This document shows, one piece after another, positions 15,484 through 34,896 of a DNA stretch of 34,896 nt. The notes below the pieces were generated by a model that was not told the origin of the DNA, did no database searches, and saw only the letters and a list, made by a program, of their open reading frames with translations. This DNA is from an uncultured Helicobacter sp. (GTDB lineage Bacteria; Campylobacterota; Campylobacteria; Campylobacterales; Helicobacteraceae): the NCBI GenBank assembly GCA_944325475.1, contig CALVAF010000144.1, positions 1 through 34,896 of the forward strand. The letters run 5' to 3'. Each line of letters begins with the position of its first letter. Positions within the stretch are counted from its first letter, which is position 1. The position numbers and the translations under genes were made by a program.

Positions 15484-15571
15484 TATCTTGCAAGTTTTTT
15501 ACTCGTGGGTTGTGGCTTCAAAGACACTCCTTTTAACCCCAAAACCGAGCAAACAAAATAAAAGGATTCTT

Positions 15572-17038: not shown

Positions 17039-17095
17039 GCACTCTTTGCAAGGATTTAAAAATTAGTTTTACACTCTTTTAAACTATGCGCATTA

Positions 17096-17107
17096 CCCCC
17101 CCCCCCC
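17096..17107. repeat. C12 homopolymer tract, intergenic upstream of the citE-like promoter
   Basis: Directly visible. Confidence 0.9.
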
Positions 17108-17243
17108 TCAACCCAAGTATTCTTTCAAATTAGTCAATGATTATCAAAAAGCCAAATTAACAAATAACTTCTTTATTTTTGCCAAAAAAATGTTTTCATT
17201 TTAAATAATTATTCTTAAAAAAGTTTAATTTTAAATTCATTTT

Positions 17244-17252
17244 TGCTATAAT
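17244..17252 (+). promoter_or_regulatory. Extended -10 (TGCTATAAT) for the citE-like gene
   Basis: Consensus match 40 nt upstream of ATG 17292. Confidence 0.6.
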
Positions 17253-17291
17253 TTTTGCGACCTAAATTTTACCATTTTTTAAGGATATACA

Positions 17292-18140
17292 ATGCCAGAT
17301 TCTGCTCCATTTCATACTTACCCCAAAGCTAAAAGCCTCCTTTTTGTCTCCAGTATCAAGCCAGAAAATTTCGCACCAAGCTTTGCTAGTAAGGCTGATG
17401 CGATTATTTTTGACCTTGAAGATTCCGTGCCAAGTGAGCGTAAAAATGAAGGTAGGACCAATCTTTTAAAACTTTGTTGTAATGATTTTAACCATAAATT
17501 TTTTGTCCGCATTAATGATGCGCAAAGTCCATTTTTTGCTGATGATATGGAATTTTTAAAAGAATTGGGATTAGAGAAGATTTATGGAATCATGCTTGCC
17601 AAAACCGAGCAAAAAGAGCATATCCAATCTGTGTTTTCTGCGCTTGGCGAGGTCTCACTACTTTTACTTATCGAAAGTGCCCTAGGAGTGCAAAACCTAC
17701 ACATTACAGCCGCACAACCTTGCGTTAAACAACTTGCCTTTGGGGCATTTGATATGATTTTAGATTTAGGATTAAGAGATGGAGAAGGAAAAGATTTTAT
17801 GCTAAATTATGTGCGCGTGCAAATGGCTTTAGCAAGCAAGATAAACAATCTTCTGCCACCTATTAATCGCGTTTTTCCCAACACAAGAGATGAATCAAGA
17901 TTAAAAGCAAATATGGAATTAGCCTATTCTATGGGCTTTGGCGGCTCACTTACCTTTTATCCCAATCAAATTCCTATCATTAATGCAATTTTCTCTCAAG
18001 ACGACAATCAAATACAATGGGCTAAAGAAGTGCTACGATTAGCAGCGATTCACAAGGGCGAACCCTTTAGCTTTGAAGGCAATGTTGTAGATATTCCAAT
18101 GATTAAAAAGGCGCAGGGTATCTTAGAGAAAAAATACTAA
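17292..18140 (+). CDS. CitE-like CoA-ester lyase (HpcH/HpaI aldolase/citrate lyase family)
   Basis: SLLFV, ADAIIFDLEDSV, FVRIN, LLIESALGV, AFGAFD, VDIPMIKKA. Confidence 0.88.
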   Translation: MPDSAPFHTYPKAKSLLFVSSIKPENFAPSFASKADAIIFDLEDSVPSERKNEGRTNLLKLCCNDFNHKFFVRINDAQSPFFADDMEFLKELGLEKIYGIMLAKTEQKEHIQSVFSALGEVSLLLLIESALGVQNLHITAAQPCVKQLAFGAFDMILDLGLRDGEGKDFMLNYVRVQMALASKINNLLPPINRVFPNTRDESRLKANMELAYSMGFGGSLTFYPNQIPIINAIFSQDDNQIQWAKEVLRLAAIHKGEPFSFEGNVVDIPMIKKAQGILEKKY

Positions 18141-18585
18141 GAATACTAACAACCCTCCAAGTTAGCTTTTATTGCCAAAACACATCATTCCTAAGAATTG
18201 CAAAAATCTTTTGTGTAAGCAACCTCAATCAAAATTTGATTCTAGGATAACCTAGCCATGCAAATATACCCTCTTAATCCCTCTAAAAACAATATAAATA
18301 CCAATGGGGAGCTTTTATATTATATTTTTCTCTAAAAAATTTTGTAAAATACCAAATGGCATAAAAAAATCCAACATAAAATCTTTAAAATAACACTGAA
18401 TCATAAACTTATTTATACTTTATTTTACTTAGCACATTATCATTTTGCATTTTCTTATAGAGATAAATCATCTAAGGTAGATTTGATGAGAAATTTTACT
18501 ATCATAACTCTTTTGAGAAATTTATTAAGCATTTTTTAACAAAGACAAATCTAAGTTGAGTTCTAAAGACTATGTTCCCACTATG

Positions 18586-18645
18586 CTTTGCCTAGACTCT
18601 AAGTATTCTAGGCAAAAGGTATGTCCAATAGGGCTGATAGCCCTA
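18586..18645. terminator. Two stem-loops downstream of putP
   Basis: TTTGCCTAGA..TCTAGGCAAA (18587-18616) and TAGGGCT-GAT-AGCCCTA (18629-18645). Confidence 0.5.
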
Positions 18646-18692
18646 ATTTTATGAATGTATGCAGCAAGATTTTGCAGCACATTTGTTAAAGC

Positions 18693-20477
18693 TTAGAGAT
18701 TTTCTAACATTTTTTGATACGCCGCTCTAGTGCCTTCACGCACATTACTTGCAAGGCTAAAGAGGATAATTGCCAAAGATGCTACTAAAAATCCCGGGAT
18801 AATCTCATACACACCCGTATCAGCAAAAAACTGCTTCCACAACACCACAACAGCCGCACCACTAATCATTCCAGCAATCGCACCAATACGTGTCATTCTA
18901 CTCCAAAAAAGCGAGAAAAGCATTACTGAACCAAAAGACGCTCCAAACCCAGCCCACGCATACGCCACAATACTAAGCACACTAGAATCTTTGTCTGTGG
19001 AGATGACAAAAGCAATGAGCGCCACCACAAGCACTCCAATTTTACCAAGCCTAAGCACCATTGCTTCAGAGGCATCTTGCTTGAAAATCTTTTTGTAAAA
19101 ATCCTCTGCAATCGTTGAGCTAGAGACAAGCAATTGCGAACTAGCGGTACTCATAATGGCTGCAAGAATTGCACTAAGCAAGATTCCAGCAACCCATGGG
19201 TTAAAGAGAAGTTGTGACATTACAATAAAGATTCGTTCTGGATCTGCTAGGGTAAGATTAAATTTATTAACATATGCTACACCAAGCATACCAATAAAGC
19301 AAGCCGCAATAAGACAAATCGCCATCCAACCTATACCAATAAAAGTCGCAGTAGGAATATCTTTAGTTGATCGAATTGACATAAACCGCACAAGTATGTG
19401 GGGTTGCCCAAAATACCCAAATCCCCACGCAAGTGCCGAGATAATCCCCACAAGCGAAACACCACTAAACCATTGTAATCTTTCTTTAGCCACAAGAGGA
19501 ATCTTTTCAAAAGCCCCAAGCAATGATGTTAAGATATCATTATCCCCTGCATTCATTGCCACTTCAAGCTTATGGGCTAAATCCCTAGGTGAAACTGCGG
19601 TATTTAAGTCATTATTAAAAAGCATCAAAACATCAGGATCATTTTTTATTTCTTGCGGAATCTTAGCTGCAACAATGCTTCTATCTTGTATATTTTGCAA
19701 TTCACCAACAAGGCTTTGAATCTTAGGATATGAATCTGGAAGACTTTGCAAAAGACTCGGAATTTCTGCTTGAATCTGCACTAATTTTTCACTAGATTTA
19801 TCAGAATCTCTTATGTATTTTGCTGCTTCGCTTAGTCCTCCTATATGAGAAAGCATCACAATAGGCACGACTACAAGAGCCAAAAGCATTAAAAGACCTT
19901 GAATCATATCCGTCCAACAAACGGCTTTATACCCTCCAAAAAAAGTATAGGCAACAATGATTAGAGTTCCTGTTGTAAGAGCATAATCATATCTTATACC
20001 AAAGACTTCTTCAAAAAGCTTTGCCCCACTTACAAGTCCAGATGAGACATAGAAGGTAAAAAAGATAAGAATTACCACTGCACAAACCACACGCAAAATA
20101 TGCTTATCATCGCTAAAGCGCGTCTCAAAATAATCTGGAATGGTTAGTGAGTTTGCCACCACGCTTGTGTAGATTCTAAGTCGTTTAGCAACAAAAATCC
20201 AATTCAAACTCGCCCCAATTGTTAATCCTATTGCAATATAGCTATCAACAAAGCCACTCACATATAAGGCTCCAGGTAAGCCCATTAAAAGCCAACCACT
20301 CATATCAGAAGCCCCAGCACTTAGGGCAGAAACCACAGGTCCCATGGAACGACCACCAAGGAAATAATCCTCAATGCTCTTGTTCTGCCTATAAAAATAA
20401 AAGCCTATAAAAAGCATCAAAGCCGAATAGGCAACAAACATTATTGCAATGGGTGTGTTTATACTTACAACTTCCAT
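18693..20477 (-). CDS. putP: Sodium/proline symporter PutP with a ~100-aa extra loop
   Basis: [49 protein letters not shown]; downstream of putA. Confidence 0.95.
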
Positions 20478-20489
20478 TATTCCCTCCTT

Positions 20490-23400
20490 TTAGTTTTTTA
20501 AAGCTCGAATTCCTAAATTTCCATAACGATGATATGATATGCTTAAAGACTTTTCATTATGATAAAATAAAAGTTCAAAGCGTCCATTTAAAAGTGGCTT
20601 ATCTCTAATGACAATCTTAGCCAAAGAAGCTGCTTTTTGATAAATTTCATCATCTACACTAGTCTTTGCATGATAGCGAATTCTTTCGTATTTTTCTATG
20701 GAATTTACAAAATTACCCTTACTTTGCTCTATAAATTCAACCTCTAAGCCAAGTTTTTCACAAACCTCTTTTGCTTTTTTTATGTTTTGATTTTCATCAA
20801 AACTTAAAATAAGCTTTATTTTAGCCACATTTGAGGCTAAAATAACAGCCAAAATATCTCTTAAGCTATCCTCTTTACACACCCTAAAGCCTAAATTTTT
20901 TATCTTTGTGTATGAAAAAAGATTATCCTCACCTCTGATATTTACATAATCTTTGCTAATGCTAAATTCATTTTTGTAATGATAGGCGTAAGATTTTGCC
21001 ATAGCACTGAGCTCGTTTAAATTCAAATTCTTAAGCTCTTTTGAAAGCTCATTTTCAAGCACATTTTCATCAATTTCATCTTGAGTTATATCTAAAAACT
21101 GCGTTATGTAATTGTAAATCCCTACCTTTCTACCAAAGCCAATGGCGGATTTTTTAATGCCACCAAAGGGCTGACGAAGCACTATCGCACCAGTTGTAGG
21201 CTTATTTATATAAATATTCCCAGCTTCTATGTGTGTGTGAAAATACTCCCACTCTCTTTCATCAAGACTTTCAAATCCAGCAGTTAATCCATATCCCGTG
21301 GAATTTACTATATCAATAGCCTCTTTTAAGTCTTTTGCTTTCATCACAGTTAAAATTGGCGCAAAAAGCTCTGTTTTGTGCGTAAAATCGCCCTTTTTGC
21401 TACCATATTTTATACCCGGACTCATTAAGTGTGAGATATCATCTATAAATTTAGGCTTTAAAGCCCATTTTTCATAAGGTTTAAGCTCATCTAAAGCTTT
21501 TTGCACCTTAGGATCTATCTCATCACAAAGAGCGGCGATTTTATTTTTAAAATCAAATGGCGAACCAACAAGCATAGATGAAGCCGCATCTACTAGGGTT
21601 TTCTTAAAATCCTCGTCCTCATAAACCTCACTTTCAAGAACAAGCAAAGAAGTAGCAGAACATTTTTGCCCTGAATTTGAAAAGGCAGAATGGATTATAT
21701 TTTTAATCGCACTATCTCTATCGGCAAATTTTGAAACTATGGTGGCATTTTTACCTCCTGTTTCAGCACTTAAAAGTAAGGTAGGATTCGCCTCTAGCAT
21801 TTTATACGCAGTTTCTTCTCCTCCTGTGAGTATGGCAAAATTTACACTTTCACTAGAAAGTAGATATTTTGATATATCGCTGCCCTTTGATGGTAAGAAA
21901 ACCAAAGCGTCCTTTGGTATGCCAGCCTCCCAAAGAATCTCACAAATCATATAGCCTGTGAGTATAGATAGCGATGAGGGCTTGTAAATGACAGCATTAC
22001 CCGCAGCAAGCGGTGCGACTATGGTGCCCACTGAAATTCCCACGGGAAAATTCCAAGGCGCTATGGTAAGTCCTACACCTTTTGGGCTAAATTTGATTTT
22101 AGGATTTTGCTCTTGTAATTTTCTCAAAGAGTGGGGGTAAAACTCAGTAAAATCAATAGCCTCGCTGACTTCAGGATCTATTTCTAAAAAAGTCTTACCC
22201 ACCTCTAGGCTTGCAATGCCTATTAAATCCCCTCTTTTTTCTCGCATTAAGCTTGCAGCACGGGCTAAAATTTGATGAATTTCCTCAAAGCTTTTTTCTT
22301 TAAATTTAGAATTTTTAGCCACCTCTAAAGCCTCTTTTATCTCTTTTTCTCCTGCCAAGTAAGCCTTACCTATCAAGCGGCTTTTTATCTTGTCTTTTAC
22401 TTCTATATAATTTAAATTTTCATCTTTTATAGCCTCTTTTATCACAGGATAGACATTAAAATTACTTAAATTTTCATACTTTGCTTTAATTTTTTTAGCC
22501 CAAGCTCTGTTTTGAGGTAGGATAAAGTCTGTGTCGCTTTCGTTTGTAAAAGTTTTTGTTTCATAAGAGCTTTTTATATTTTGTTTTTCATTTCTATCTT
22601 GCTTTCTATGAGTTGAATTATCTAAATCTTTTACACCTTTTAAGCTATCTAAAAAAAGTTTTTCTTGCTTTTGCCAATTCTTATCTCCAACCTTTAGGTT
22701 GAAAAAATAACGCATAAAATTATCCTCGCTAGTATTTTCATCAAGCCTTCTTACAAGATAAGCTATGGCGTTGTTAAAATGCGCATCATCGCAAACCGGT
22801 GCATAAAGAATCAGATTATGAATTTTAGACAACTCATAAGAGCATGTTAAGCTCATACCCTCAAGCATTTCAAAGGTAAAACTATCAAAGGCATTCGCCT
22901 CCTTTATCCTAGTGTAAGCATAGGCTATTTCAAAGATATTATGACTTGCTATGCCTATGTTGATGTATTTATAATTCTCATCTTGCAAGATGAAGTCTAG
23001 CATTTTGTTGTAGTTACTATCTGTGTCTATCTTTTTATAAAAAGTCGGAAGTTCCCATCCTCTCTGACTTGCGATAGTTTCCTCACTTTCCATATTCGCA
23101 CCTTTTACAAAGCGAATTTTTATAGGTTTCATTCCCTTTAAAACTCTTTCTTTTGAAAAGGCAAAAAGCTTTTTAAGATACTCATAAGAATCAGGGATAT
23201 AAGCTTGCAAGACTATACCTGCCTTTATGTCAAATTTGCTTAAACTCTCAATAAAAGCAGCAACAGTTAGCTCCAAATCCCTAAATTCTTCCATATCCAA
23301 GTTTATAAATTTATCAACCCCTTGTTTCTTCTCTTCTTCTTGCGCAAGAGCATAAAGATAATCCAGCCTTTTTACAACCTCATCTTTTGAGTATTCAAAA

Positions 23401-23969
23401 TCTATAATATTAATCTGTGAAAAAATGGTAGTGATTTTAATAGATATATAAGTGATATAGCTTGATTTTAAGGCATCTTCATACTTTTTTATGCGATAAG
23501 CACTTTCAGCCTCGCCTAAAACTTCCTCGCCGATTAAATTTACATTCAAAGTGATATTATCCTCATTTTTCCTTTTTTCTATATGAGGCTTTAAAAAGCT
23601 TTCGTTTGCATCTAAAACCATAGCACTTGTATCTTTTCTTAGATGAGATACAAAAAAAGGCACTGAAATGCTCGGCGCAAAACGTCCAAAATTTATAAAA
23701 GAGAGAAGCAAAAATTTCTCAAAAGCAGTAAAAAAGTCTGCTATACCAAATTTCTTTAAACTATGTTCTATTAGCTCAAAAGAAGCCTTTTTATCCTTAC
23801 ACCTAAAAGAACGATCTAATAACTCTATAAGCATAACCTTATTTTCAGGGTTATTTAAGAGTTTTTGCATTTTTTTGTGAAATTCCCTCTCACTCTGCGA
23901 GATATGTGCCTCAATCTTGTGCTGCAAGTCTTTGGCAAATTTCAGGGATTCCTCTATTATCTGATCCAT
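20490..23969 (-). CDS. putA: Bifunctional proline dehydrogenase / glutamate-semialdehyde dehydrogenase PutA
   Basis: NLIGE, NLDMEE, RFVKGA, YLVRRLDEN, ETGGKN, SGQKCSA, QPFGG. Confidence 0.96.
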   Translation of the reverse strand: MDQIIEESLKFAKDLQHKIEAHISQSEREFHKKMQKLLNNPENKVMLIELLDRSFRCKDKKASFELIEHSLKKFGIADFFTAFEKFLLLSFINFGRFAPSISVPFFVSHLRKDTSAMVLDANESFLKPHIEKRKNEDNITLNVNLIGEEVLGEAESAYRIKKYEDALKSSYITYISIKITTIFSQINIIDFEYSKDEVVKRLDYLYALAQEEEKKQGVDKFINLDMEEFRDLELTVAAFIESLSKFDIKAGIVLQAYIPDSYEYLKKLFAFSKERVLKGMKPIKIRFVKGANMESEETIASQRGWELPTFYKKIDTDSNYNKMLDFILQDENYKYINIGIASHNIFEIAYAYTRIKEANAFDSFTFEMLEGMSLTCSYELSKIHNLILYAPVCDDAHFNNAIAYLVRRLDENTSEDNFMRYFFNLKVGDKNWQKQEKLFLDSLKGVKDLDNSTHRKQDRNEKQNIKSSYETKTFTNESDTDFILPQNRAWAKKIKAKYENLSNFNVYPVIKEAIKDENLNYIEVKDKIKSRLIGKAYLAGEKEIKEALEVAKNSKFKEKSFEEIHQILARAASLMREKRGDLIGIASLEVGKTFLEIDPEVSEAIDFTEFYPHSLRKLQEQNPKIKFSPKGVGLTIAPWNFPVGISVGTIVAPLAAGNAVIYKPSSLSILTGYMICEILWEAGIPKDALVFLPSKGSDISKYLLSSESVNFAILTGGEETAYKMLEANPTLLLSAETGGKNATIVSKFADRDSAIKNIIHSAFSNSGQKCSATSLLVLESEVYEDEDFKKTLVDAASSMLVGSPFDFKNKIAALCDEIDPKVQKALDELKPYEKWALKPKFIDDISHLMSPGIKYGSKKGDFTHKTELFAPILTVMKAKDLKEAIDIVNSTGYGLTAGFESLDEREWEYFHTHIEAGNIYINKPTTGAIVLRQPFGGIKKSAIGFGRKVGIYNYITQFLDITQDEIDENVLENELSKELKNLNLNELSAMAKSYAYHYKNEFSISKDYVNIRGEDNLFSYTKIKNLGFRVCKEDSLRDILAVILASNVAKIKLILSFDENQNIKKAKEVCEKLGLEVEFIEQSKGNFVNSIEKYERIRYHAKTSVDDEIYQKAASLAKIVIRDKPLLNGRFELLFYHNEKSLSISYHRYGNLGIRALKN

Positions 23970-24547
23970 TTATCATTCCTTAAAATTTCTATTCATAAGA
24001 GCAAATTCTAATAAAAAACACACAAAATAGCAATAAAGTTAAATAAAATTATACTTTATTCGTGTTTAAAAGTGTTATTTAGTAACAAATAAAAAATCTC
24101 AGATTGTGCTATAACATCAAGTTTAATCCATTTTATCAAAACAAGATCATGGGAGTATCAATGATATTCATGCTTTGTATCTGTATGCATCCATTTGAGC
24201 CTCCTATATGGGTACAACACGTTTGGGGCAGTGACTTAGCAATATCCACTTGTGTGGGGGATTACTCAACCTAGCACGTTTGCGCTCACTGCAGCACTAC
24301 TCCAATTCTTTGGATTACCCACCTTTGTAGGCATTGCACGACTATGCTTTAAATGATTCCTCCCATGCGCACTACATTTATAGCACCTAGCCCAAAATCT
24401 AATCCTAAACCCACTCCAACTTTCATTCCACACGCAATTAAGACACATGTCTTTTATCCTACCAAATTCAGCTTCACTTCACAGAAGGAATAGAGATTTG
24501 CACTCCACACAAGTCCTCTCTCACCCCAAAATATTCTCATTTCTATT

Positions 24548-25010
24548 TCATGAGAGATTGTCATTGATTACACCTCGCATATCATCGAGTAGTTTTTTGT
24601 TTTTCTTTGAGAGAGAACCATATAATCTTGCAGAAAATACTATGATAATCTCTAAAACATCTTTGGCTAATTCTTCTTCAAATTTAATGTTTTCATCGCC
24701 TTTATTGATTATTTACTTCCACTTCTTTAGCTTCACAAATGGCAAAAACAAGTTCAGCTCCAAATCTTAGTAGTCTATCTTTGTGTGTTAGAACAAGTCT
24801 TTTAACTATCCCTCTAAAATAAGATTTAAGCTTCATTAAGACTTTTTCATAATCATTCCTACCACTGCCTACCACTGCCTACCACTGCCTAAATCTTAGA
24901 TAAGCTCATAATTAATCCAGCCTTAGCACAATAATTCTAAGACTTGAATTTGCCTTATTAATCCTCTTTTTGGTCGTGGCTACTTACTCTAGCATAGGCA
25001 ATGGTTTTAA
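24548..25010 (-). mobile_element. tnpA: IS607-family TnpA serine recombinase remnant (pseudogene)
   Basis: KTIAYARVSSHDQKED*, DLGSG, LVLTHKDRLLRFGAELVF, EELAKDVLEIIIVFSARLYG across several frames; no recognisable tnpB. Confidence 0.85.
24858..24891. repeat. 3 x 10-bp tandem repeat CCTACCACTG
   Basis: Perfect triplication within the DLGSG-coding segment of tnpA. Confidence 0.9.
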
Positions 25011-25394
25011 GATTAATGCAGGGTTTTAGATGAAAAATCTGGCTTATTGGCGCTATCACTGCCCTTTGTGCACTTACCTTTAATGTGCCACTTGGGATTT
25101 TGGTGGATAAACCCACTATAAACGCACACCAATTTCCTTTCATCCTAGCTATCATGGGCAATGTGTTGCTTAATTACTTCTATCCTGCCTTTGCCTTTAT
25201 GCTCATCACACAAGCCTTCATAAGCCTCTGTAGCATTTCTCTTGCACCTGTTTTTTGCTACGCTCGCAAGATTTGTGGCATGGAAGTTGTTTTGTCTGCA
25301 TTTAGAAATCACCAAACAAGGTAGATTTAAGCTTTAAGAAAAGTTAGATTATAATTGCAATTTCAATGCCAAAATTATACAAAAGTGAGAATCC

Positions 25395-26057
25395 ATGAAC
25401 CAAGTGCAAATTCTAGTCCTAGACTTTGGCTCTCAATACACGCAACTTATCGCAAGACGCTTACGCGAATTTGGCGTTTATACTGAAATTGTGCCATATT
25501 TTGAGAATCTAGAATCTATGAGGGCAAAAAATCCCAAAGGCATAATCCTAAGCGGCGGTCCTGCCTCTGTGTATGAGGAGGGGGCGTATAAGCCAGATTC
25601 TGGGGTTTTTGAGCTAGGTGTGCCGGTGCTTGGAATCTGCTATGGTATGCAGTATATCGCCCATCATTTCGGCGGCAAGGTCATAAGAGCAAAGGAGCAG
25701 GAGTTTGGCAAGGCAAGGCTAGAGATTATAGAGTGCAAATCGCCATTATTTGCTAATGTCAAGCAAGATTCTATCGTGTGGATGAGCCATGCTGATAAGG
25801 TTCAGACAATCCCGCAAGGCTTTAGCGAGCTAGCAAAGTCGGACAACACGCATTATTGTGCCATAGCGGACTTTCAAAGGCAAATCTATGCCTTGCAGTT
25901 TCACCCCGAAGTCGTGCATAGCGAGTGTGGCGGGGAGATTCTAAAAAATTTTGCGGTGCAAATTTGTGAGGCTAGCACGGATTGGAATATGAAAAACTTT
26001 ATCGCCTATGAGATAGCAAAAATCCGTGAAATCACAGGATTTAAAAGCCAAGATTAA
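25395..26057 (+). CDS. guaA: GMP synthase, N-terminal glutamine amidotransferase half (split guaA)
   Basis: LDFGSQYTQLIARR, GICYGMQ (catalytic Cys), QFHPEV; ends EIAKIREITGFKSQD*; TATAAT at 25350. Confidence 0.95.
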   Translation: MNQVQILVLDFGSQYTQLIARRLREFGVYTEIVPYFENLESMRAKNPKGIILSGGPASVYEEGAYKPDSGVFELGVPVLGICYGMQYIAHHFGGKVIRAKEQEFGKARLEIIECKSPLFANVKQDSIVWMSHADKVQTIPQGFSELAKSDNTHYCAIADFQRQIYALQFHPEVVHSECGGEILKNFAVQICEASTDWNMKNFIAYEIAKIREITGFKSQD

Positions 26058-26099
26058 TGTTCTAGCAATACCCACAAATGGCTTAAAGGAGTAGCGATG

Positions 26100-26470
26100 T
26101 ATCCCCTAATCTTGCATAAAAAGAGGATAAGCAAACATGCTAAATAGACCAAAAATCATTACAGCGCCAACTGCTATGATACCCTTGTATGGTTCTAAAA
26201 CGCAACGAAGATTCTAAAGCAAGGATCGCTGCAGCTCCACATATAGCACTACCAGCACTCACTAAAATCGCAAGCTCTCTATCAAGCTTAAAAAAAACTT
26301 CATGCCAATCCAAACCCCTAACACTAATCATAATGACAATAAATACACCGCAGGCAACACCCGTGATTCCCACTTTCCCAATCTCTGCTGTTATACGCAT
26401 GTTATCAATAAGATATACAATACAAATAATCATGTATCAAAACATTATAAAAGGGCTTTTATGATGTTTA
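26100..26470 (-). pseudogene. YeiH-family (putative sulfate exporter) remnant
   Basis: FKLDRELAILVSAGSAICGAAAILALE matches the YeiH GxxICGxxA motif; truncated and frameshifted. Confidence 0.7.
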
Positions 26471-26489
26471 TGGCATAAGCTTTTTTGAA

Positions 26490-27356
26490 TCATTCTTGAG
26501 CGATGTGTAGGGCAAAGGTTATAGCATCGGGTATGACCGTGCCATGTGTTTTATTGGCAAATGTTTTAAAGACTATGGGGATATCTGGATTATCACGCAT
26601 TAATACACTCGCTAATGTTTTAGAATCAATAGTCATGTTGCCCCTTTTACTTGGCGATTCAAGTGTGCCTAATGTGATGGCAATGGATCGTATGGGACTT
26701 TTTATGTGTAAATCTTCTGGTATAAAAGCCGCATTTTTCCACCATAAAGAGGGGGAGGCACAGATATAATTGTCAAAAGTTTGAGGATGATTAAAAAGCA
26801 CATACAAACAAAAGACACCCCCAAAAGAATGGCCAAAAAAACTGGATCGTTGGATATGATATTGTTTATGCATTGGGGTAATGACCTCTTTGTATAAAAA
26901 ATGATAAAAATCCTCTGCCCCACCACCTTCATAGCTATGAGATTCTTGGATAGATTGCATAGAATCTCTGTGATTGGGGGCTTGTGGGCTTATAGAGTGG
27001 TTTATCTTTGGAAGATAATCATAGGTTCTCCATGGGGTATGATAGGCTAAGGGGGTATTATACCCTATGCCAACTATAATGAGATTCTTAGAATGAGAAA
27101 AATGCTCTGAGTAGAGATTAAGCGCAAGGGGAAATTGCGCATTAGCGTCTAAGAGATAGAGGATTGCATAGGTGTCTGTGGTAGTGCTGTGTTTGGGTAT
27201 AGCTGTATAGATTCTGTATCTTGGATAGTTTGTAGTCGTTATATGAAAGGCATTTAGTGCTTTTTGAGAAAGGGGGGGTATATCTTGATTGGGTTTAGCC
27301 ATAAGGAGTAGAGGTAATAGTATAATATGTATATAAAATAGACTTCGTGTTTTCAT
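26490..27356 (-). CDS. Exported alpha/beta hydrolase, IroE/BesA-like siderophore esterase
   Basis: Signal-like N-terminus, YLLDAN, IIVGIGY, RTYDYLP, GGAEDF, GHSFGG nucleophile, ASPSLWW, terminal His. Confidence 0.8.
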   Translation of the reverse strand: MKTRSLFYIHIILLPLLLMAKPNQDIPPLSQKALNAFHITTTNYPRYRIYTAIPKHSTTTDTYAILYLLDANAQFPLALNLYSEHFSHSKNLIIVGIGYNTPLAYHTPWRTYDYLPKINHSISPQAPNHRDSMQSIQESHSYEGGGAEDFYHFLYKEVITPMHKQYHIQRSSFFGHSFGGVFCLYVLFNHPQTFDNYICASPSLWWKNAAFIPEDLHIKSPIRSIAITLGTLESPSKRGNMTIDSKTLASVLMRDNPDIPIVFKTFANKTHGTVIPDAITFALHIAQE

Positions 27357-27358
27357 GA

Positions 27359-27757
27359 TTATGTATCCAAGTTATGCCATAGTTTGGAATAATTCTTTTC
27401 TTGGCTACTCACATCTTGTCTATTTAGATGATTTTTATCCCCTTGTATGCCTATACAAGCATGAGCATACCCCAAATTTATCATCATAGTTTGAATCTTA
27501 TTTTTAATATGACTTTTATATGCAATACCTGCCGGTATACTATCTGCCCACACACCAGCAGCAATACATGATCTCGAATCAATAAGAGCTAGGTCAAAGC
27601 GATTTTTATATTTGCTATTTGTCCTAATACCAAAAAGCAAAAAGCCTTTGGGGAGGCTTGAAATTCTTTTAAATATTTTGCTGTTTTCTGAAGATTGCCC
27701 TGTTTTTGTATGATGTTTTTTATGACCTATGTGCAATTTCTGTATTGCTACCATCAA
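27359..27757 (-). pseudogene. ArgJ-like (ornithine acetyltransferase) N-terminal remnant
   Basis: PKGF..FGI...K..RFDLALI..AAGV..MINLGYAHACIGIQG resembles the ArgJ N-terminus (consensus VNSGNANAxTG); far too short. Confidence 0.5.
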
Positions 27758-27770
27758 TCCCCTTCAAATT

Positions 27771-27789
27771 AATAATGATAATACTATCA
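27771..27789. promoter_or_regulatory. Fur-box-like site
   Basis: AATAATGATAATACTATCA vs consensus GATAATGATAATCATTATC; upstream of the argJ-like remnant and esterase. Confidence 0.5.
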
Positions 27790-28397
27790 AATTTTATCTC
27801 AATATCAAATAAATCCTCTTTAAGATGTTACAAATGGCATACCAAAGCCCTTTGAAAGGTCACTATTGGCATGAGGAGTGTTACTCACAATGGCATTGTA
27901 TAGTCATTAGATTAGAGGGTTTTTTAAGATTGGACTTAGGCGATGTGGGATAACACAGAATTATAAAAATAAGATTCTAATTCATACAAAGATTTGCAAA
28001 ACAAAGAATACATCTAAAAAAGACCATATACAAGAAGACCCATAAGGGAGCAATCACTTTTTAGTGAATATTTAAAAATACTGCGGGAAGATAGGATTTG
28101 TCATAAAAAACACCCTAACAAAAGAGCAGATATTGCAAGACTGGCAAACACAATAAAAAATCTCTAAGGTATGAAAGTGATACAAGAGAGATAAGGAGGT
28201 TATTTGAGGAAATTATAACTATGAATGAGCTGATAGAATGGCTTAGGGCATTAGATACGTATTCCATTAACGATATAAATATGTATTATAGATTAAAACT
28301 CTATTTGTTAAAGAACAAACACGCTTTAATCTAGCAAAATGCCTCAAAATATCTAAAATCAAAATGGCAAAAGAAAATTAAAAGAAAAGAAATAAAA

Positions 28398-28406
28398 TGA
28401 TACAAT
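28398..28406 (+). promoter_or_regulatory. Extended -10 (TGATACAAT), candidate promoter for the plus-strand cargo
   Basis: TGnTAnAAT followed by AAGGA. Confidence 0.4.
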
Positions 28407-28482
28407 ATCAAATTTCATTTAAGGACTAAGAATACAAGAAACAACTATATGATTTGTCAAAAATACTTGCTGGAAATGTGGA

Positions 28483-28776
28483 TTGGAATATTTTGTGTGT
28501 TATGTGCTTCCACAAGGCAATATACTCAACCATACAGAAATCTTTAATCCACAGATTCCAAATAAACTCAAAGAATGGCAGAGTAATAACACCCATATCC
28601 CATTAGGCGTGGTGAAAGAGCGACATAGTAACGCCACGCAAACAAGCTATATGTCCTTCTTTGGGGATTGGTATTTGAAAGAGCTAGTTAGAGACACAAT
28701 GTATGAAAAACAAGGCGATATAGCTGATTTTGTGCTTAGAGACTACGTGAGTGATTTAGAGATAAAAGGATTTTAA
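28483..28776 (+). CDS. Hypothetical protein (possibly 5'-damaged)
   Basis: 97-aa ORF ending 4 nt before tag; no motif recognised. Confidence 0.4.
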   Translation: MEYFVCYVLPQGNILNHTEIFNPQIPNKLKEWQSNNTHIPLGVVKERHSNATQTSYMSFFGDWYLKELVRDTMYEKQGDIADFVLRDYVSDLEIKGF

Positions 28777-28780
28777 AATT

Positions 28781-29656
28781 ATGGATTCTCATGAGCGAGA
28801 TTCTAAAAACATAGAATCTAAGGGCGATTCGCAGACAAAAACTTACTTAAAAGATTCTAAGATTATAAATTCCAATGGGCGAAGTGTTGTAAATGAGAAA
28901 TCGGGGTTTTATGAGGCTGGGCAAGGAAATTTATCAACTACAAATAACCAAAGCCAAGCCAAAGCTTCTGTTGCAAATGCAACCAACCCAAACTCGCAAA
29001 TCTTAAGCTCAAAAGACAAGCCCTTTACCCAAAAGACAATACCTAACACGCAAAAGCCTAAGCTATTAGAGCGTTGCAACTGGGTGTATCAAGGCTATAA
29101 TGCTAGCGATTTGGCGACTAAAAAACTCTATCAAGATTACCATGATTTTGAGTGGGGAATCCCACAGCACGAGGATAGACGGCTTTTTGAACAGCTTGTG
29201 CTAGAGGGCATGCAATCTGGGCTTTCGTGGATTACGATTTTAAAGAAGCGAGCGGCTTTGAGGGAGGCATTTGATGACTTTGACCCTGTAAAAGTGGCGG
29301 GGTATGATGTGGCAAAGATAGAATCTCTTATGAAAAATAGCAAGATTATCCGCAATCGCGCTAAGATAGAATCTGCCATTAACAATGCCAAGCGGTTTTT
29401 GGAGATACAAAGGGAGTTTGGAAGCTTTGATAGCTTTATTTGGGGCTATGTGGGGGGCAAACCTATCATAAATGCCTTTAAATCCCTAGAGGAGATTCCC
29501 ACGCGCACCGAGCTCTCTGATAGGATAGCTAAAGACCTCAAAAAGCGGGGTTTTAGCTATGTGGGGAGTGTGGGAATCTATGCCTATATGCAATCTATTG
29601 GGCTTGTGTGCGATCATTTGGTTACTTGTGCGTTTTATTACAAATCTAGCGTATGA
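28781..29656 (+). CDS. tag: DNA-3-methyladenine glycosylase I with a ~95-aa low-complexity N-terminal extension
   Basis: RCNW, YHDFEWG, LEGMQSGLSWITILKKR, IIRNRAKI, DHLVTC. Confidence 0.93.
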   Translation: MDSHERDSKNIESKGDSQTKTYLKDSKIINSNGRSVVNEKSGFYEAGQGNLSTTNNQSQAKASVANATNPNSQILSSKDKPFTQKTIPNTQKPKLLERCNWVYQGYNASDLATKKLYQDYHDFEWGIPQHEDRRLFEQLVLEGMQSGLSWITILKKRAALREAFDDFDPVKVAGYDVAKIESLMKNSKIIRNRAKIESAINNAKRFLEIQREFGSFDSFIWGYVGGKPIINAFKSLEEIPTRTELSDRIAKDLKKRGFSYVGSVGIYAYMQSIGLVCDHLVTCAFYYKSSV

Positions 29657-29755
29657 TTGTATTAGGTAAAGACAAAATGTGGGAAGCAGGAATATTTGAG
29701 GATACATTCTACTTGTAAATGAGTGTTGTAAAATAACTATTTGAGGAGCGATGTT

Positions 29756-29989
29756 ATGAAAAACGCTTTATGTTTTGAATCCTTTATAAAAATGTTAAAA
29801 CCGAGCAATAGGGATTTGGGGTTTTATGTGGATTGGGAAAAATGTCTAAGAAATCGTGATAGAATCGCTATTACCCTAAATCATCTTAATTTCTTACTAG
29901 GCAAAGATTCTTTGCAAATGCAAGAATGTATCGCTACACTTTTTGCAGAATATAGCAAAGCTTTTGAAGTATTACCACATGACAAGTAG
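29756..29989 (+). pseudogene. Truncated DpnII/MboI-family restriction endonuclease (N-terminal ~75 aa)
   Basis: F..FIKMLKPSNR...YVDWEK..N...ITLNHLNFLLGK resembles the DpnII N-terminus; GAGGAG RBS; adjacent to a DpnA-like MTase. Confidence 0.7.
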
Positions 29990-30824
29990 AGTTTTGCCCA
30001 TATTGCCTATTTTTCAAAGCCAAGATTCTTTGTTTTCTCTTTATCAGAGCGACTGCAATGAGATTTTACAAGAATTTAGAGGGCAATTTGACCTAATCTT
30101 TGCCGATCCACCTTATTTTCTCTCTAATAATGGCTTGAGTATCCAAAGTGGCAAGATTGTAAGTGTCAATAAGGGACAATGGGATAAGGGGGAAAATATC
30201 GGTGACATTGATGCTTTTAATAGGCAGTGGATACAAAATGCCAAAGAGGCTTTAAAACCCACGGGTAGTATTATGATAAGTGGAACATATCACAATATCT
30301 TTTCATTAAGTAGAATTTTACAAAAACTTGATTTTAAGATTCTAAACATTATTACTTGGCAAAAGACAAACCCGCCACCAAACTTTAGTTGTCGTTATCT
30401 CACGCATTCCACAGAACAGATTATCTGGGCTCGAAAAAGCTATAAACATAAACATATTTTTAACTATGAGATTCTCAAAAAACTCAATGGCGATAAGCAA
30501 ATGCGTGATGTATGGAGTTTTCCAGCTATCGCTCCTTGGGAAAAGACAAATGGCAAACACCCAACACAAAAGCCCTTAAGTCTTTTGATACGTCTTATTT
30601 TAATGGCAAGTGATAAGGATTCTCTTATCTGTGATCCCTTTAGTGGCTCTAGCACCACAGGCATTGCAGCAAATCTTTTACATAGAAAATTTATAGGTAT
30701 TGAAAAAGAAAATGAGTTTATACAAATGTCGATTAAAAGAAAAGAGGAATTAGATTCTAATAGAAAAGGTATAGAATCTAGGATTAGGGATTTGGTAAGG
30801 CATAGAAACACAAATAATTCTTAA
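29979..30824 (+). CDS. Beta-class amino DNA methyltransferase, DpnA-like (probably GATC m6A)
   Basis: FADPPYFLSN, VSVNKGQWD, SGTYHNI, NPPPNFSCRY, KHPTQKP, DPFSGSSTTG. Confidence 0.9.
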   Translation: MTSRVLPILPIFQSQDSLFSLYQSDCNEILQEFRGQFDLIFADPPYFLSNNGLSIQSGKIVSVNKGQWDKGENIGDIDAFNRQWIQNAKEALKPTGSIMISGTYHNIFSLSRILQKLDFKILNIITWQKTNPPPNFSCRYLTHSTEQIIWARKSYKHKHIFNYEILKKLNGDKQMRDVWSFPAIAPWEKTNGKHPTQKPLSLLIRLILMASDKDSLICDPFSGSSTTGIAANLLHRKFIGIEKENEFIQMSIKRKEELDSNRKGIESRIRDLVRHRNTNNS

Positions 30825-30855
30825 GATTTTAATCATTTATATTTAAGGGACAGGC

Positions 30856-31572
30856 TTGAAAAACACAGAATTCAAACAAGTTTCAAAGATCATACAAGAG
30901 CAGGATTTTGAAAGCAGAGATTCCAAAAGCATACAAAAATTTACAATGATATTGCAAACCAAGCGGGTTTATTTGCGAGAATACACGCTAGAGGACTTGC
31001 CTGCCTTGCATAAGATTCTAAGCGATGAGCAGACGATGTATGCTTGGGGGCATGGCTTTAGCCTACAAGAGAGCAGGGAATGGATAGAGAAGCAGTCAAG
31101 GAGCTATAAAGAAAATGGCTTTGGGCTGTGGGCGATAGTGGATAAAGAATGCGGGGAGATTATTAGCAATGCCGGGCTAAATAGAGAGATGATAAGCCTT
31201 AATGGAGTTATAAGAAGTGAGATTATCGAGATAGGCTATATCGTGGCTAGGGAGTTTTGGGGACAAGGGCTAGGCACAGAGGTAGCAAGGGCGGTGCAAG
31301 AGTATGCCTTTAAGATTTTGGGCTTAGAGCGAGTGTATTGTCTTATCAAGGAGGATAATTTTGCCTCTATGCGTGTGGCTAGAAAGCTTGGCGGAAGCAT
31401 GATTGGCAAATATATCAAAAACTATCAGGGCAAGGATTTGATACATTATATCTTTGAGTGTAGAGGCGCGGAGATTGTCTTTGAGAGTGAGAATACAGAA
31501 TCTAGCTATGCTGTAAATAAGCCTACAAACAAGAGATTTGTGTATAGAGAATCACTTGGGAACAAGGAGTGA
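30856..31572 (+). CDS. GNAT N-acetyltransferase (RimJ/RimL-like)
   Basis: LQTKRVYLR, GFGLWAI, EIGY, FWGQGLGTE, NFASMRVARKLG; alternative ATG 30946. Confidence 0.88.
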   Translation: MKNTEFKQVSKIIQEQDFESRDSKSIQKFTMILQTKRVYLREYTLEDLPALHKILSDEQTMYAWGHGFSLQESREWIEKQSRSYKENGFGLWAIVDKECGEIISNAGLNREMISLNGVIRSEIIEIGYIVAREFWGQGLGTEVARAVQEYAFKILGLERVYCLIKEDNFASMRVARKLGGSMIGKYIKNYQGKDLIHYIFECRGAEIVFESENTESSYAVNKPTNKRFVYRESLGNKE

Positions 31573-31632
31573 GAAAATGGAGATACAAAGCAAAAAAATG
31601 CAAATAGATTTTACACCATACAAAGAATATCA

Positions 31633-31644
31633 GGGGGGGGGGGG
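31633..31644 (+). repeat. G12 tract inside a 25-codon uORF (31577-31654) upstream of the restriction gene
   Basis: Directly visible; uORF has an AAGGAG RBS and ends in a TAATG overlap. Confidence 0.85.
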
Positions 31645-31653
31645 TAACTTTTA

Positions 31654-32415
31654 ATGAATAATGCAATATTAAATAAAATTGAAATAAAGACATTGCAAGA
31701 GATAGAATCAAAATATTATATGAAGCCGATATTAGATTCTATACTGCAAGACATTGAAAGCAAGAATAGAGAGTGGCATAAGGTTTTTGATAATCTCTAC
31801 TCTTATCTTGTGAATTCAAAAGATTTGGTAGAAAAGCTTATACAATTAAGAGTGCAAAACGGAGTAATCAAAGATGCCTCACAAGCAAGGAAAAGCATAG
31901 CAGGACAAGCTTTTAGCAATCTCATCATTTGGACATTTTTAAAAAATAAAGAGCAAGGGCATATTGAGAAAAATATCTTTATCACCTCTAAACGCTCTCA
32001 AATTCCAAATCATAAAGAAATCTTTTTAATACAAGTAGGCGAAGAAACACAAAAACCAGATGTGGATTTAGTTATTTATAGTCTAGATTCTATACATAAT
32101 TTACATAAATGCTTGATTATATCTCTTAAGACTTCTTTGCGTGAAAGGGCTGGACAGACATATAAATGGAAACTTTTAATGGAAATAGCCAACACAGAAT
32201 CTAACTTAAAAGAAAAATACAATATTTCTTATAATCCACCTATTATGCCTCTAGTATGCTTTGCAACAGTGAATTTCTATAATGAAATCAACAATCCACA
32301 ACACAGAGGAATGTTTAAGTTTTTTGATTGTGCCTTTATTGGTAAAGATATAGAAGCAGATGATTTTATCAAGCCCTTAAGTTATCTAATCACATATATA
32401 AAAGAGAATCTATGA
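31654..32415 (+). CDS. Type II restriction endonuclease, BsaWI-like (CCGG-family PD-(D/E)XK variant)
   Basis: RKSIAG..F, KPDVDLVIY, IISLKTSLRERAGQ (KxxxRER motif); overlaps the MTase (ATGA). Confidence 0.8.
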   Translation: MNNAILNKIEIKTLQEIESKYYMKPILDSILQDIESKNREWHKVFDNLYSYLVNSKDLVEKLIQLRVQNGVIKDASQARKSIAGQAFSNLIIWTFLKNKEQGHIEKNIFITSKRSQIPNHKEIFLIQVGEETQKPDVDLVIYSLDSIHNLHKCLIISLKTSLRERAGQTYKWKLLMEIANTESNLKEKYNISYNPPIMPLVCFATVNFYNEINNPQHRGMFKFFDCAFIGKDIEADDFIKPLSYLITYIKENL

Positions 32416-33737
32416 CGCTTACACAATCTACTTTAAACACATCTCATACTATACACGATAAAACTATTGATAATGCTAAAACTATCGCTAATACCCAAAG
32501 CAACACTACAAAATACGATTTTCTAGGACAATCCTATGCCTCAATGTATCCAAATTTACATAAATATCCTGCTACTATGCTACCTCAAATTGGACTAGAA
32601 CTTCTTAGGGATTTTAAAGTAAAAAAGACAAATTTACTAGACCCATATTGTGGGAGTGGCTCTAGCTTTATAAGTGGGATAGAATATGGCATGACACATT
32701 TTGTAGGCTTTGATTTAAATCCTTTAGCAATACGCATTGCTAAGGCAAAGCTAATCTTTATAGAATCCAAGTATCTCTTAGAGGAAAAAGAAAAGCTGTT
32801 GCACCAAATCCATAAAAAGCATACGATGCACTTAGATTCTAATCCCTTAGAAAATATCACCAATCTTGATTTTTGGATAGGAAAAGAGGCTCAAGAAAGT
32901 TTAGCGCATATCTTTTCTTGCATTCAGCAATATAGTGATGAAAATGTGCAAAATCTTTTTATCCTTGCCTTTAGTGAAACCCTGCGAGAAGTAAGCTACA
33001 CAAGAAACAATGAATTTAAGCTTTTTAGAATGAAAGAGCATGAAACTTATAAGCCAGATACATATAAGGTTTTCATAAAAAATATGGAATCTCTTATCAA
33101 GAATTATTTAGACTTTTATCAACCAAAATTGCATTCTCTATCTTTTAAGCTTATAAATTCGAGTTTTACCAATACTCAACAAAAATTTGATTGCATTCTC
33201 ACAAGCCCACCTTATGGGGATTCTAAAACCACAGTGGCGTATGGTCAATTTAGCACTTTTATTAATGAGTGGCTTGGGTTTAGGGAAGCTAGAAAGCTAG
33301 ATTCTAAACTTATGGGAGGAAAAAAGGCTAGAAGTCTCTATCAAAGAGGCGTAATGCGTGAGTGTATCACAAAAATTAGCAAACAAGATTCTAAAAGAGC
33401 CTTAGAGATTTCTAGCTTTTATTTTGATTTGGAAAAAAGCATTCAAAATGTGGTAGATTCTATAAATATCGGTGGTAAAGTCTTTTATGTAGTTGGTAAT
33501 CGCAGGGTTAAAAATATTGAACTTCCCACTGATGTATTTATCGCTGAAACTTTTTGCAAAAATGGCTTTACACATTTAGAGACTATAAAACGAAAAATCT
33601 CTAATAAATCAATGCCACTTAGAAACTCACCAACAAACAAAACAGGTATCTTATCAAACACAATGAATGAAGAATATATTGTAGTGTGTGAGAAAAAGAT
33701 TTGGAATAAGCAAAAGGAGCAAAAATGCAAAGTTTAA
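32412..33737 (+). CDS. Alpha-class N4-cytosine DNA methyltransferase
   Basis: LHKYPA, LDPYCGSG (motif I) before TSPPYG (motif IV), VVGNR. Confidence 0.88.
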   Translation: MTLTQSTLNTSHTIHDKTIDNAKTIANTQSNTTKYDFLGQSYASMYPNLHKYPATMLPQIGLELLRDFKVKKTNLLDPYCGSGSSFISGIEYGMTHFVGFDLNPLAIRIAKAKLIFIESKYLLEEKEKLLHQIHKKHTMHLDSNPLENITNLDFWIGKEAQESLAHIFSCIQQYSDENVQNLFILAFSETLREVSYTRNNEFKLFRMKEHETYKPDTYKVFIKNMESLIKNYLDFYQPKLHSLSFKLINSSFTNTQQKFDCILTSPPYGDSKTTVAYGQFSTFINEWLGFREARKLDSKLMGGKKARSLYQRGVMRECITKISKQDSKRALEISSFYFDLEKSIQNVVDSINIGGKVFYVVGNRRVKNIELPTDVFIAETFCKNGFTHLETIKRKISNKSMPLRNSPTNKTGILSNTMNEEYIVVCEKKIWNKQKEQKCKV

Positions 33738-34150
33738 GAGGAGTAAAGGCAAAAGAGAAATTTGTGCAAGATTATATGAATATCAAGGTATTAGCCTACC
33801 GTGTTTTACTGAATGGTGATATGAGAAAAAACCAATGTGGCGGCAAATTAACAAATAGGGAACTTTTTGATTTAATAAACTTAATATGGATAGGATTATC
33901 ATTGCAAAATATCGATATTTTGCACGATATTCAAAATAAGCTTTATGAAAATCCAGACAAGGAACCACCACCAAGTCATTTCAAATCACTCAATACAATA
34001 CTGAATAAATGGAATACTACGATACAAAGTATTATTGCTAAATTGCAACAAAACAATAGGAATTTTAGAAACTTCGATTTTACACAGGCAAGAGAATATC
34101 TTAAGGAATATTTTGAGAAAAATAATATTAACGATACAATACAATTTTAA
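33725..34150 (+). CDS. Hypothetical protein coupled to the R-M operon
   Basis: AAGGAG RBS, overlaps the MTase end, 141 aa, no motif recognised. Confidence 0.7.
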   Translation: MQSLRGVKAKEKFVQDYMNIKVLAYRVLLNGDMRKNQCGGKLTNRELFDLINLIWIGLSLQNIDILHDIQNKLYENPDKEPPPSHFKSLNTILNKWNTTIQSIIAKLQQNNRNFRNFDFTQAREYLKEYFEKNNINDTIQF

Positions 34151-34220
34151 TAAATCTATTAAATGTATTATGTGTAGTAGAAAAATCTCAGAGTTTAAAT
34201 TTACAATTTAGGAGACAACA

Positions 34221-34896
34221 TTGAAACATAAAACTTTTAGACAGGCTTCAAAGACGATGTATGAGCAGCCAGATTCTGAAAATTTAGAATCTAAAACGCC
34301 AAGCAAAGTGCTATGTGCTGTTAGCGGTGGGGTGGATTCTAGTGTTGTAGCCACGCTTTTATATAGGGCGATTGGGGAGAATCTTATCCCAATTTTTGTG
34401 GATACGGGGCTTTTACGCAAAGGCGAGCGAGAAGCAGTCGAGCAGATGTTTAAAGAGAATCTCAAAGTGCCTTTGATAACCATTGATGCCAGCAAGGAAT
34501 TTTTGGGGTTACTTAAGGGCGTGAGCGACCCAGAGCAAAAACGCAAGATTATCGGCGAGACCTTTATCAAGGTTTTTGAGCGAGAGGCAAAAAAGCATAA
34601 CACAAATGGCGAAATAAAATTCCTAGCGCAAGGCACACTTTATCCTGATGTGATAGAATCTGTGAGCGTGAAAGGACCCTCTAAAACGATAAAATCTCAT
34701 CACAATGTTGGCGGACTGCCCGAATGGATGAAATTTAAGCTGATTGAGCCATTAAGGGAGCTTTTTAAAGACGAAGTGAGGGCATTAGGCAGGGAGCTAG
34801 GAATGCCAGAATCTATGCTTATGCGACACCCATTCCCCGGACCCGGACTAGCCATACGCATAATGGGCGAGGTTACAAAAGAGGATTTGGATTTGT
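34221..34896 (+). CDS. guaA: GMP synthase, C-terminal ATP-pyrophosphatase half (split guaA); runs off the window
   Basis: TTG 34221 with AGGAGA RBS (in-frame ATG 34257): [77 protein letters not shown]. Confidence 0.96.

Follow-up and report, generated by a model that had tools for sequence, protein, structure and literature searches.

Here we describe guaA, the gene for GMP synthase, in an uncultured Helicobacter sp., in a stretch of DNA of 34,896 nucleotides (the window) that is the entire contig C144 of a metagenome bin (1.42 Mb, 211 contigs, 76% complete). We read guaA here as two genes, each intact and conserved, parted at a loop where most related species carry in-frame GNAT acetyltransferase and TagI DNA glycosylase domains; probably the two products reassemble into a working GMP synthase, and probably the gap between the genes acts as a slot for exchange by homologous recombination. 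Judged from sequence, the locus is best read as an intragenic hotspot resembling a minimal mobile element, combined with a bacterial two-subunit GMP synthase.

Two halves of guaA and the gap between them

The 5′ half (25395-26057, forward strand), recognised as an open reading frame (ORF) and by the NCBIfam profile NF000848, encodes a complete class I glutamine amidotransferase (GATase) followed by the first helix of the ATP-pyrophosphatase (ATPPase) domain (WNMKNF...EIAKIRE), together with a short remnant of the linker. Its product of 220 residues ends in ...EIAKIREITGFKSQD, with the stop codon at 26055-26057. The 3′ half (34221-34896, forward strand), recognised in the same way, encodes the ATPPase subunit without its first helix and runs into the contig edge. 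An earlier note, made from the letters of this DNA, had proposed a guaA split by an insert of about 8.2 kb, with a ribosome-binding site (RBS) and a TTG start of its own for the ATPPase half, and both proposals hold. The gap spans 26058-34220 (8,163 bp), and the ATPPase half starts with the TTG at 34221, 6 nt past an AGGAG, with a 28-residue leader and a frame that is open to the end of the contig. Because the contig ends there, the last ~100 codons are missing, and they were not found on the other contigs of this 76%-complete assembly. All the motifs looked for are kept (the catalytic Cys in GICYG, His-Pro-Glu, SGGVDS, QGTLYPD, SHHNVGG and HPFPGPGL), so that the GATase triad and ATPPase motifs of a two-domain bacterial GuaA are present on two polypeptides rather than one. 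Positions 1-212 of NF000848 fall to the GATase half and 213-409 to the ATPPase half, with no loss and no overlap. The earlier note had allowed for a second intact guaA; none was found elsewhere in the bin. It had also placed the fission in the interdomain linker, which needs correction: the break lies ~19 residues into the ATPPase domain, past its first helix. The ATPPase half aligns from residue 227 of the E. coli enzyme, whose ATPPase domain begins at residue 208 according to the part of a review covered here (PMC10526850), and from residues 18-20 of the archaeal chains 6JP9 and 2DPL, with 385 bits to E. coli versus 318 bits to the archaeal chains.

The split itself is real. The same loop is the place of the split in seven other genomes (93-99% complete), and each of five near-complete split genomes (93-99%) has one GATase over the cut-off and one ATPPase. 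The nearest named proteins to the halves are those of H. pullorum and H. canadensis; a GATase-only protein of 225 aa is encoded on a 1.73-Mb contig of H. pullorum, and the 90% cluster into which the stand-alone ATPPase falls has 305 sequences, among them a 315-aa H. pullorum member. Sequencing run X12, from another study, holds a single contig of 5,735 nt that bridges both halves in the order GATase, TagI, GNAT, restriction-modification (R-M), hypothetical gene, ATPPase; it is without 26039-28876 and 29635-30973, and its identity to the window is ~95% over the R-M block and ~85% over the GATase. Run X13 of the same study is similar, and the left 2.8 kb (26039-28876) is missing from both. Pieces of three runs cover that segment, namely X1, which may be the source sample, X2 and X3; among the pieces listed, none joins the GATase stop to it. 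The best-matching run (99% identity to the window) is a metagenome of chicken gut, possibly the very sample from which the window came. An artefact of assembly or binning is suggested by the incompleteness of the bin, by the fact that the whole 9.6 kb stands on no single public contig and by the lack of an independent bridge from the GATase to 26058-28380; the seven other genomes, the stand-alone H. pullorum proteins and the X12 contig largely clear the split of this suspicion, and we regard an artefact as extremely improbable. The mis-assembly that the earlier note had feared is thereby answered for the junction of the two halves, and the concern stands for the left 2.3 kb of the gap.

On the family profile one half begins exactly where the other ends, and in two split genomes (G002 and G160) the GATase stop lies within the start of the following ORF, as might be expected if the insert were removed at the DNA, RNA or protein level (nifD/skin-type excision, an intron, an intein or a programmed frameshift) to give a single chain. 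However, searches of the insert for a recombinase, a Hint domain or an Rfam intron found none, no in-frame direct repeats were found at the junctions, and a nifD/skin-type element, intron or intein was rejected on these grounds. A direct GATase-ATPPase joint was likewise not found in eight runs, whose contigs drop rare forms, and in every split genome the ATPPase is preceded by an RBS and start of its own. Removal of the insert is therefore highly improbable. Structured RNA searches of 24000-34896 gave one chance Rfam match (E 0.43), tRNA and tmRNA scans gave none, no att-like repeats were seen at the split junctions, and promoter and terminator scans returned 38 and 5 sites, the same as shuffled sequence. 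An origin by duplication and later deletion was also rejected, as remnants of the guaA 3′ end sought in the insert gave only chance scores of 22-28.

A putative two-subunit enzyme

The earlier note had called the fission tolerated, and substitution patterns agree: the ratio of nonsynonymous to synonymous substitution rates (dN/dS) shows purifying selection on both halves, also between all-split genomes. For the GATase half the ratio is 0.08-0.12 against split partners and 0.09-0.10 against fused ones, and for the ATPPase half it is 0.026-0.047; inside the all-split clade the values are 0-0.15 and 0.03-0.07, respectively. The first ATPPase helix is retained on the GATase half in all 8 split genomes, and it is predicted to dock into the ATPPase and so hold the pair together. 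A model of the complex of the G002 halves scored 0.82 (best control 0.00), a result that may reflect likeness to solved single-chain GMP synthases; the mark for this score was reached by 116 of 157 solved pairs and by 2 of 215 mismatched pairs. The modelling runs agree on at least 94% of contacts with a partner pLDDT of at least 87, and the surest contacts involve GATase residues 200-212. The AlphaFold model of the lone ATPPase has a pLDDT of 74 and a disordered leader.

It is conceivable that the halves do not cooperate at all, with the ATPPase using free ammonia and the GATase half serving another partner or being lost. Lone ATPPase units use ammonia in vitro, according to the parts covered of two sources (PMC10526850; 10.1101/2022.02.27.481963), and dN/dS is higher for the GATase (~0.1) than for the ATPPase (~0.03). 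On the other hand, the GATase triad is intact, its dN/dS is equal against split and fused partners, and the GATase half of each split genome holds a helix that is otherwise missing from the ATPPase. We consider non-cooperation unlikely, and a working bacterial two-subunit GMP synthase likely. In the same parts of these two sources the bacterial enzyme is described as a single chain, and Helicobacter goes unmentioned in the part of the review (PMC10526850) covered here. The archaeal two-subunit GMP synthetases (P. horikoshii, 2DPL/3A4I; M. jannaschii, 6JP9) are alike in having GATase and ATPPase on separate genes. They differ in the place of the cut, since archaeal subunit B has 17-19 residues ahead of the point where the Helicobacter half starts, whereas here the first helix stays on the GATase; the split guaA is bacterial in descent, independent and recent. 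A bacterial two-subunit enzyme cut unlike the archaeal one would be useful for understanding how two active sites stay coupled.

Loaded guaA genes and their exchange between genera

A guaA search of the family matched 165 of 173 genomes. Among the best 99 of the 150 listed matches, 67 lie in frames longer than 560 codons, 33 in frames longer than 1,000 (maximum 2,286) and 6 in frames shorter than 400, and the remaining 51 lie in frames of 433-524. Outside the family, frames among the matches listed (151 further matches lie beyond these) are nearly all 483-600 codons, the exceptions being one genome with 906 (G339) and one frame of 314. We excised 78 loci, comprising all 24 genus mates, others chosen for long or short frames, and outgroups, which with the window gives 79 rows; the counts below are not population rates because the length of the frame or likeness to guaA played a part in the choice of these loci and of the 30 genomes of the identity comparison. 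Most enterohepatic relatives have guaA as a single frame, with GNAT and TagI domains inserted in frame at two loops. Site 1, within the GATase between the catalytic Cys and the His-Glu pair, carries an insert in 51 of 78 loci (47 identified by script, 4 by reading) and is broken in none of 77; a break there is predicted not to be tolerated, as it would part the Cys from the His-Glu. The GATase is visible in 78 loci, counting the window; in 50 of these, site 2, past the EIxKxR helix, holds an in-frame insert, and in eight it is split: those of G000 (the genome of the window), G002, G029, G031, G140, G154, G160 and G161. Ten of 78 loci are compact. GNAT inserts are found at either site; TagI is confined to site 2. 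The landing pad of the earlier note is thus borne out as a site of variable cargo at the same place across Helicobacter genomes, but it pre-dates the fission that was supposed to have created it, being filled in frame in most loci, and it is accompanied by a second in-frame site in the GATase.

TagI occurs in 48 of 173 family genomes, as one copy each, and for 43 of them that copy is part of guaA; in five complete genomes all PF13302 matches below 1e-20 lie within guaA. The window TagI is homologous to 34 of 97 in-frame inserts and the window GNAT to 27, and for this reason the two genes are best read as former in-frame GuaA domains. Long Helicobacter GuaA proteins are present in NCBI and UniRef under the plain name GMP synthase, and Swiss-Prot presumably holds one of 1,375 aa from H. 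hepaticus; entries of that name conceal TagI and most of the strong-scoring GNATs encoded by these genomes. Tandem GNAT-like domains make up site 1 inserts of 1,060-1,270 aa within the GATase at four loci (L045, L046, L047 and L049; genomes G122, G124, G189 and G132). Three genomes of g7 have guaA frames of 433-439 aa, and one database protein (P0108, 585 aa) consists of TagI and ATPPase.

How the ATPPase half came by its start can be read at the junctions. Its RBS, TTG and leader align in register with the start of the GNAT cargo gene, which, of 19,210 genome windows compared, scores highest after the region itself (42; the next, at 36, is the TagI leader), so the leader that the earlier note had called new is a recycled one. 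A hairpin motif with four copies in the bin is present in both the TagI and the ATPPase leaders. In G002, G029, G140 and G160 the start module of a Cys-rich gene heads the ATPPase, in G154 an intact Cys-rich domain is fused to its front, and G161 and G031 each have a distinct leader, which makes four different leaders over eight split genomes. The overlap of a cargo ORF with the GATase stop in G002 and G160 resembles what a frameshift in the linker might leave. A single origin of all eight splits was rejected (p-AU 2.4e-5, on 41 of 79 rows and for a group named after the tree had been seen), and a single origin of the seven without G031 was not (p 0.16).

The in-frame domains are joined by low-complexity linkers, often with a palindromic repeat of ~116-120 bp. 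All seven dispersed copies checked (L140-L146; genomes G126, G149 and G009) lie inside open frames of unrelated proteins in the same orientation and frame; we take the hosts to be MurJ-like, AlaRS-like and other proteins. The window's genome also carries two copies within an IlvD-like gene (C162:930-2999). One copy of the repeat forms a hairpin with a z-score of -4.5, and the window's copies fold no better than shuffled sequence (-0.14 and -0.74). Rickettsia palindromic elements are short palindromic repeats found in frame in unrelated proteins, and the linker repeat is like them in being palindromic, dispersed and in frame. Membership of that family was nonetheless rejected, as none of 16 linker peptides matched any NCBIfam model of it; the repeat is a separate sequence family, possibly an undescribed one.

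The loaded gene also moves. In the ATPPase tree genera are mixed, whereas recA mostly keeps them together. Among 362 cross-genus pairs from the 30 genomes, at least 90% DNA identity was reached by 26 for the ATPPase and 13 for the GATase and by none for recA or purA, whose cross-genus maxima are 82% and 69%; several of the guaA pairs involve one-contig genomes. The window ATPPase is 87-88% identical to that of three other genera, and its identity to the closest members of its own genus is 81%. Many shared tracts begin close to the guaA start and reach the stop codon, cargo included (G023/G143, 98%; G011/G149, 96%; G149/G188, 96%), some switch partner within the gene (G003/G121, with 79% over the GATase and 100% over the ATPPase), and some reach into the flanks. 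Such gene-length tracts fit the earlier note's suggestion that cargo is swapped by homologous recombination. Of 75 guaA loci, 52 have R-M genes no more than 1.5 kb away, compared with 1 of 60 purA or recA loci, and such genes crowd both outer flanks of guaA too. One genome of another family (G339, family f12; L139:7937-10657) has, as its only guaA match, a Helicobacter-type GNAT-loaded guaA of 906 codons with a 94% identical ATPPase, downstream of uvrC and with further genes after it. Among the matches of a protein search there are also long GuaA proteins labelled as Campylobacter helveticus and C. felis (P0114, P0165).

These observations suggest the following course. Comparison of the loci indicates that a compact guaA gained in-frame domains at permissive loops, site 1 in the GATase and site 2 past the first ATPPase helix, and that guaA with its cargo has become near-identical across genera, even families, in a way that recA and purA have not. 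Transfer would rely on natural transformation, with the conserved ends serving for allelic replacement, and the selfish R-M systems clustered around guaA may be what drives it. At site 2 a frameshift, stop or inserted gene probably broke the chain at least twice, and the ATPPase would have been rescued by capturing the start signals of a cargo gene, with only frame-keeping or restart-providing insertions surviving selection. The opened slot then admits stop-bearing genes on either strand, R-M genes of the kind found beside guaA in other genomes among them, and some of these genes decay. A broader version can be offered only tentatively: guaA may be a self-spreading cassette platform whose in-frame domains are active and are shuffled by the palindromic linker repeat, the whole loaded gene sweeping across genera and into Campylobacter by R-M-driven allelic replacement, until fission and helix complementation yield a stable two-subunit enzyme and a gene-level array.

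Several points weigh against the probable reading of a reassembling enzyme around an exchange slot. The window's own guaA 3′ end is unassembled; the case for a working pair is made from sequence and a structural model; and the one RNA run (X20) gave contigs of relatives only. The sampling of loci and genomes described above keeps the counts from being rates, and the R-M query proteins were drawn from guaA flanks. ComEC and DprA speak for transformation by their presence in all 5 genomes checked, but they occur in most control genomes too. The notion of a protected slot is weakened because guaA is dispensable for mouse colonisation by H. pylori: in the part of PMC3368855 covered here, guaA mutants depend on added guanine when cultured in defined medium and show slower growth in broth, yet colonise mice, so that 'essential' is too strong a word for the gene. 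Finally, partial copies of the guaA ends bracket flanking cassettes 0.7-2.7 kb off, mostly R-M, in 18 of 79 loci (e.g. L060, L010, L068, L024 and L074), as 3′-end repeats of 44-293 nt around downstream cassettes of 1.4-2.3 kb at 14 loci and 5′-end repeats of 82-156 nt at four. By their sequence these duplications show a second route, by integration or one-sided recombination, besides two-arm replacement.

The same repeats, together with a presumed tnpA remnant just upstream of guaA in the window, could mean that cargo enters through an integrase or transposase acting in trans at guaA, with homologous replacement secondary. Because repeat length and start point vary, the repeats are unlike a fixed att core. 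No integrase or recombinase was found in the insert by profile search, in keeping with the earlier note, nor any integrase family among 55 flank and cargo proteins scanned (part of 81 shared clusters, singletons excluded), and the only tyrosine recombinase found in the assembly sits on another contig. Entry in trans is accordingly quite unlikely. guaA is a hotspot for genomic islands that insert by means of an integrase. The Helicobacter locus shares with these the hotspot itself and, in relatives, the 3′-end duplications behind downstream cassettes; it differs in that no integrase was found, the cassettes are small, the repeat length varies and the insertion lies inside coding sequence. For the assembled part of the locus, which lacks the guaA 3′ end, an integrase-driven island was rejected, with no integrase at the edge, an internal insert and repeats in relatives that are not a fixed att.

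The putative exchange slot in guaA resembles the minimal mobile elements of Neisseria (Saunders and Snyder 2002), as defined in the part covered of PMC3787668 and treated in that of PMC2952849, with which it shares a variable cassette between conserved flanks, the absence of a mobility gene and the occurrence of the same cassette in distant relatives and different ones in close relatives. It differs in that the flanks are parts of one enzyme gene, being separate genes only in the eight split genomes, in that most cargo is translated in frame, and in that exchange spans genera and families. The NCBIfam model NF040702 (ileS_w_GNAT) describes another in-frame GNAT within a core enzyme; guaA differs in that it bears variable tandem arrays at two sites (to ~1,270 aa), carries TagI as well, is exchanged horizontally and has undergone fission more than once. 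We found no paper on the arrays, the exchange or the split in literature searches on Helicobacter together with guaA or GMP synthase, GNAT/TagI fusion or in-frame palindromes, in a collection with few subscription journals. If the reading is right, guaA is a vehicle rather than a stable marker, and guaA phylogenies and annotations will mislead in these species. The series from compact through in-frame loaded to split genes would allow gene fission and start-site capture to be followed in nature, and the locus would offer R-M systems and acetyltransferases an integrase-free route among gut Campylobacterales.

Cargo of the gap and neighbouring genes

The earlier note described dispensable genes around the break as decayed. 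This is so for three fragments, whereas much of the cargo is intact and under purifying selection. On the reverse strand, next to the GATase, lie a decayed fragment of a YeiH/UPF0324-like membrane protein (26140-26433; positions 75-139 of 304 in PF03601), an intact alpha/beta-hydrolase of the esterase family (26490-27356; PF00756) with homologues in 3 of 24 genus mates, never on the guaA contig, and a decayed ArgJ fragment (27359-27757; PF01960 positions 5-81 of 377, with an E of 0.007 that falls under the cut-off). All further cargo is on the forward strand. A decayed copy of the small Cys-rich domain with its RBS and start module (28380-28776) was recognised by comparison with G154 and other split genomes; the ESM Atlas returned only hypothetical proteins for this domain. 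The TagI 3-methyladenine DNA glycosylase (28781-29656; PF03352, E 1e-75), the sole TagI of the genome, retains a linker remnant of ~95 aa, with the hairpin motif at 28798 and a decayed palindromic repeat at 28868-28959.

A truncated DpnII-type endonuclease (29741-29989; PF04556 positions 2-67 of 278) is followed by an intact adenine DNA methyltransferase (N6_N4_Mtase, 29943-30824, from a profile search; dN/dS 0.07). Homologues of the latter lie upstream, downstream or within guaA in 12 other loci, and the DpnII pair does so in 10-12. The RimJ/RimL-type GNAT acetyltransferase has its own TTG start (30856-31572; PF13302, E 1e-32). It precedes a BsaWI-like endonuclease and methyltransferase (31654-33737; PF18643 and PF01555), a pair that stands directly 3′ of the guaA stop in G014, G018 and G155. 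A poly-G tract at ~31634-31645, just 5′ of this endonuclease, varies in length in other runs and is a possible phase-variation switch. A hypothetical gene (33725-34150), for which the ESM Atlas gave nothing usable, has a homologue directly past the guaA stop in G154, and next, at 34190-34304, the ATPPase half has its RBS, its TTG start and a leader of 28 codons, defined by in-register homology to the GNAT gene start and with the hairpin motif at 34271. In run X20 a joint of 33742 to 28418 reveals a relative in which the BsaWI-like methylase leads directly into the start module and Cys-rich domain, that is, another cassette order.

Immediately 5′ of guaA, at ~24450-25160 on the reverse strand, lies a fragmented remnant whose pieces have no Pfam match and which has an 87% copy on contig C194; by its motifs we take it to be an IS607-type serine resolvase (tnpA). 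Further upstream (15488-25394), a nadB-like gene stands ~8 kb from guaA, separated from it by what are presumably a CitE-like lyase, putP, putA and the insertion sequence remnant. In outgroup loci the nadB-like gene is directly 5′ of guaA, and in several genus mates it is within a few genes; the hotspot therefore seems to grow upstream too. The PutP-like symporter (18693-20477, reverse strand, 594 aa) has an apparent hydrophilic insertion of ~100 aa within a loop.

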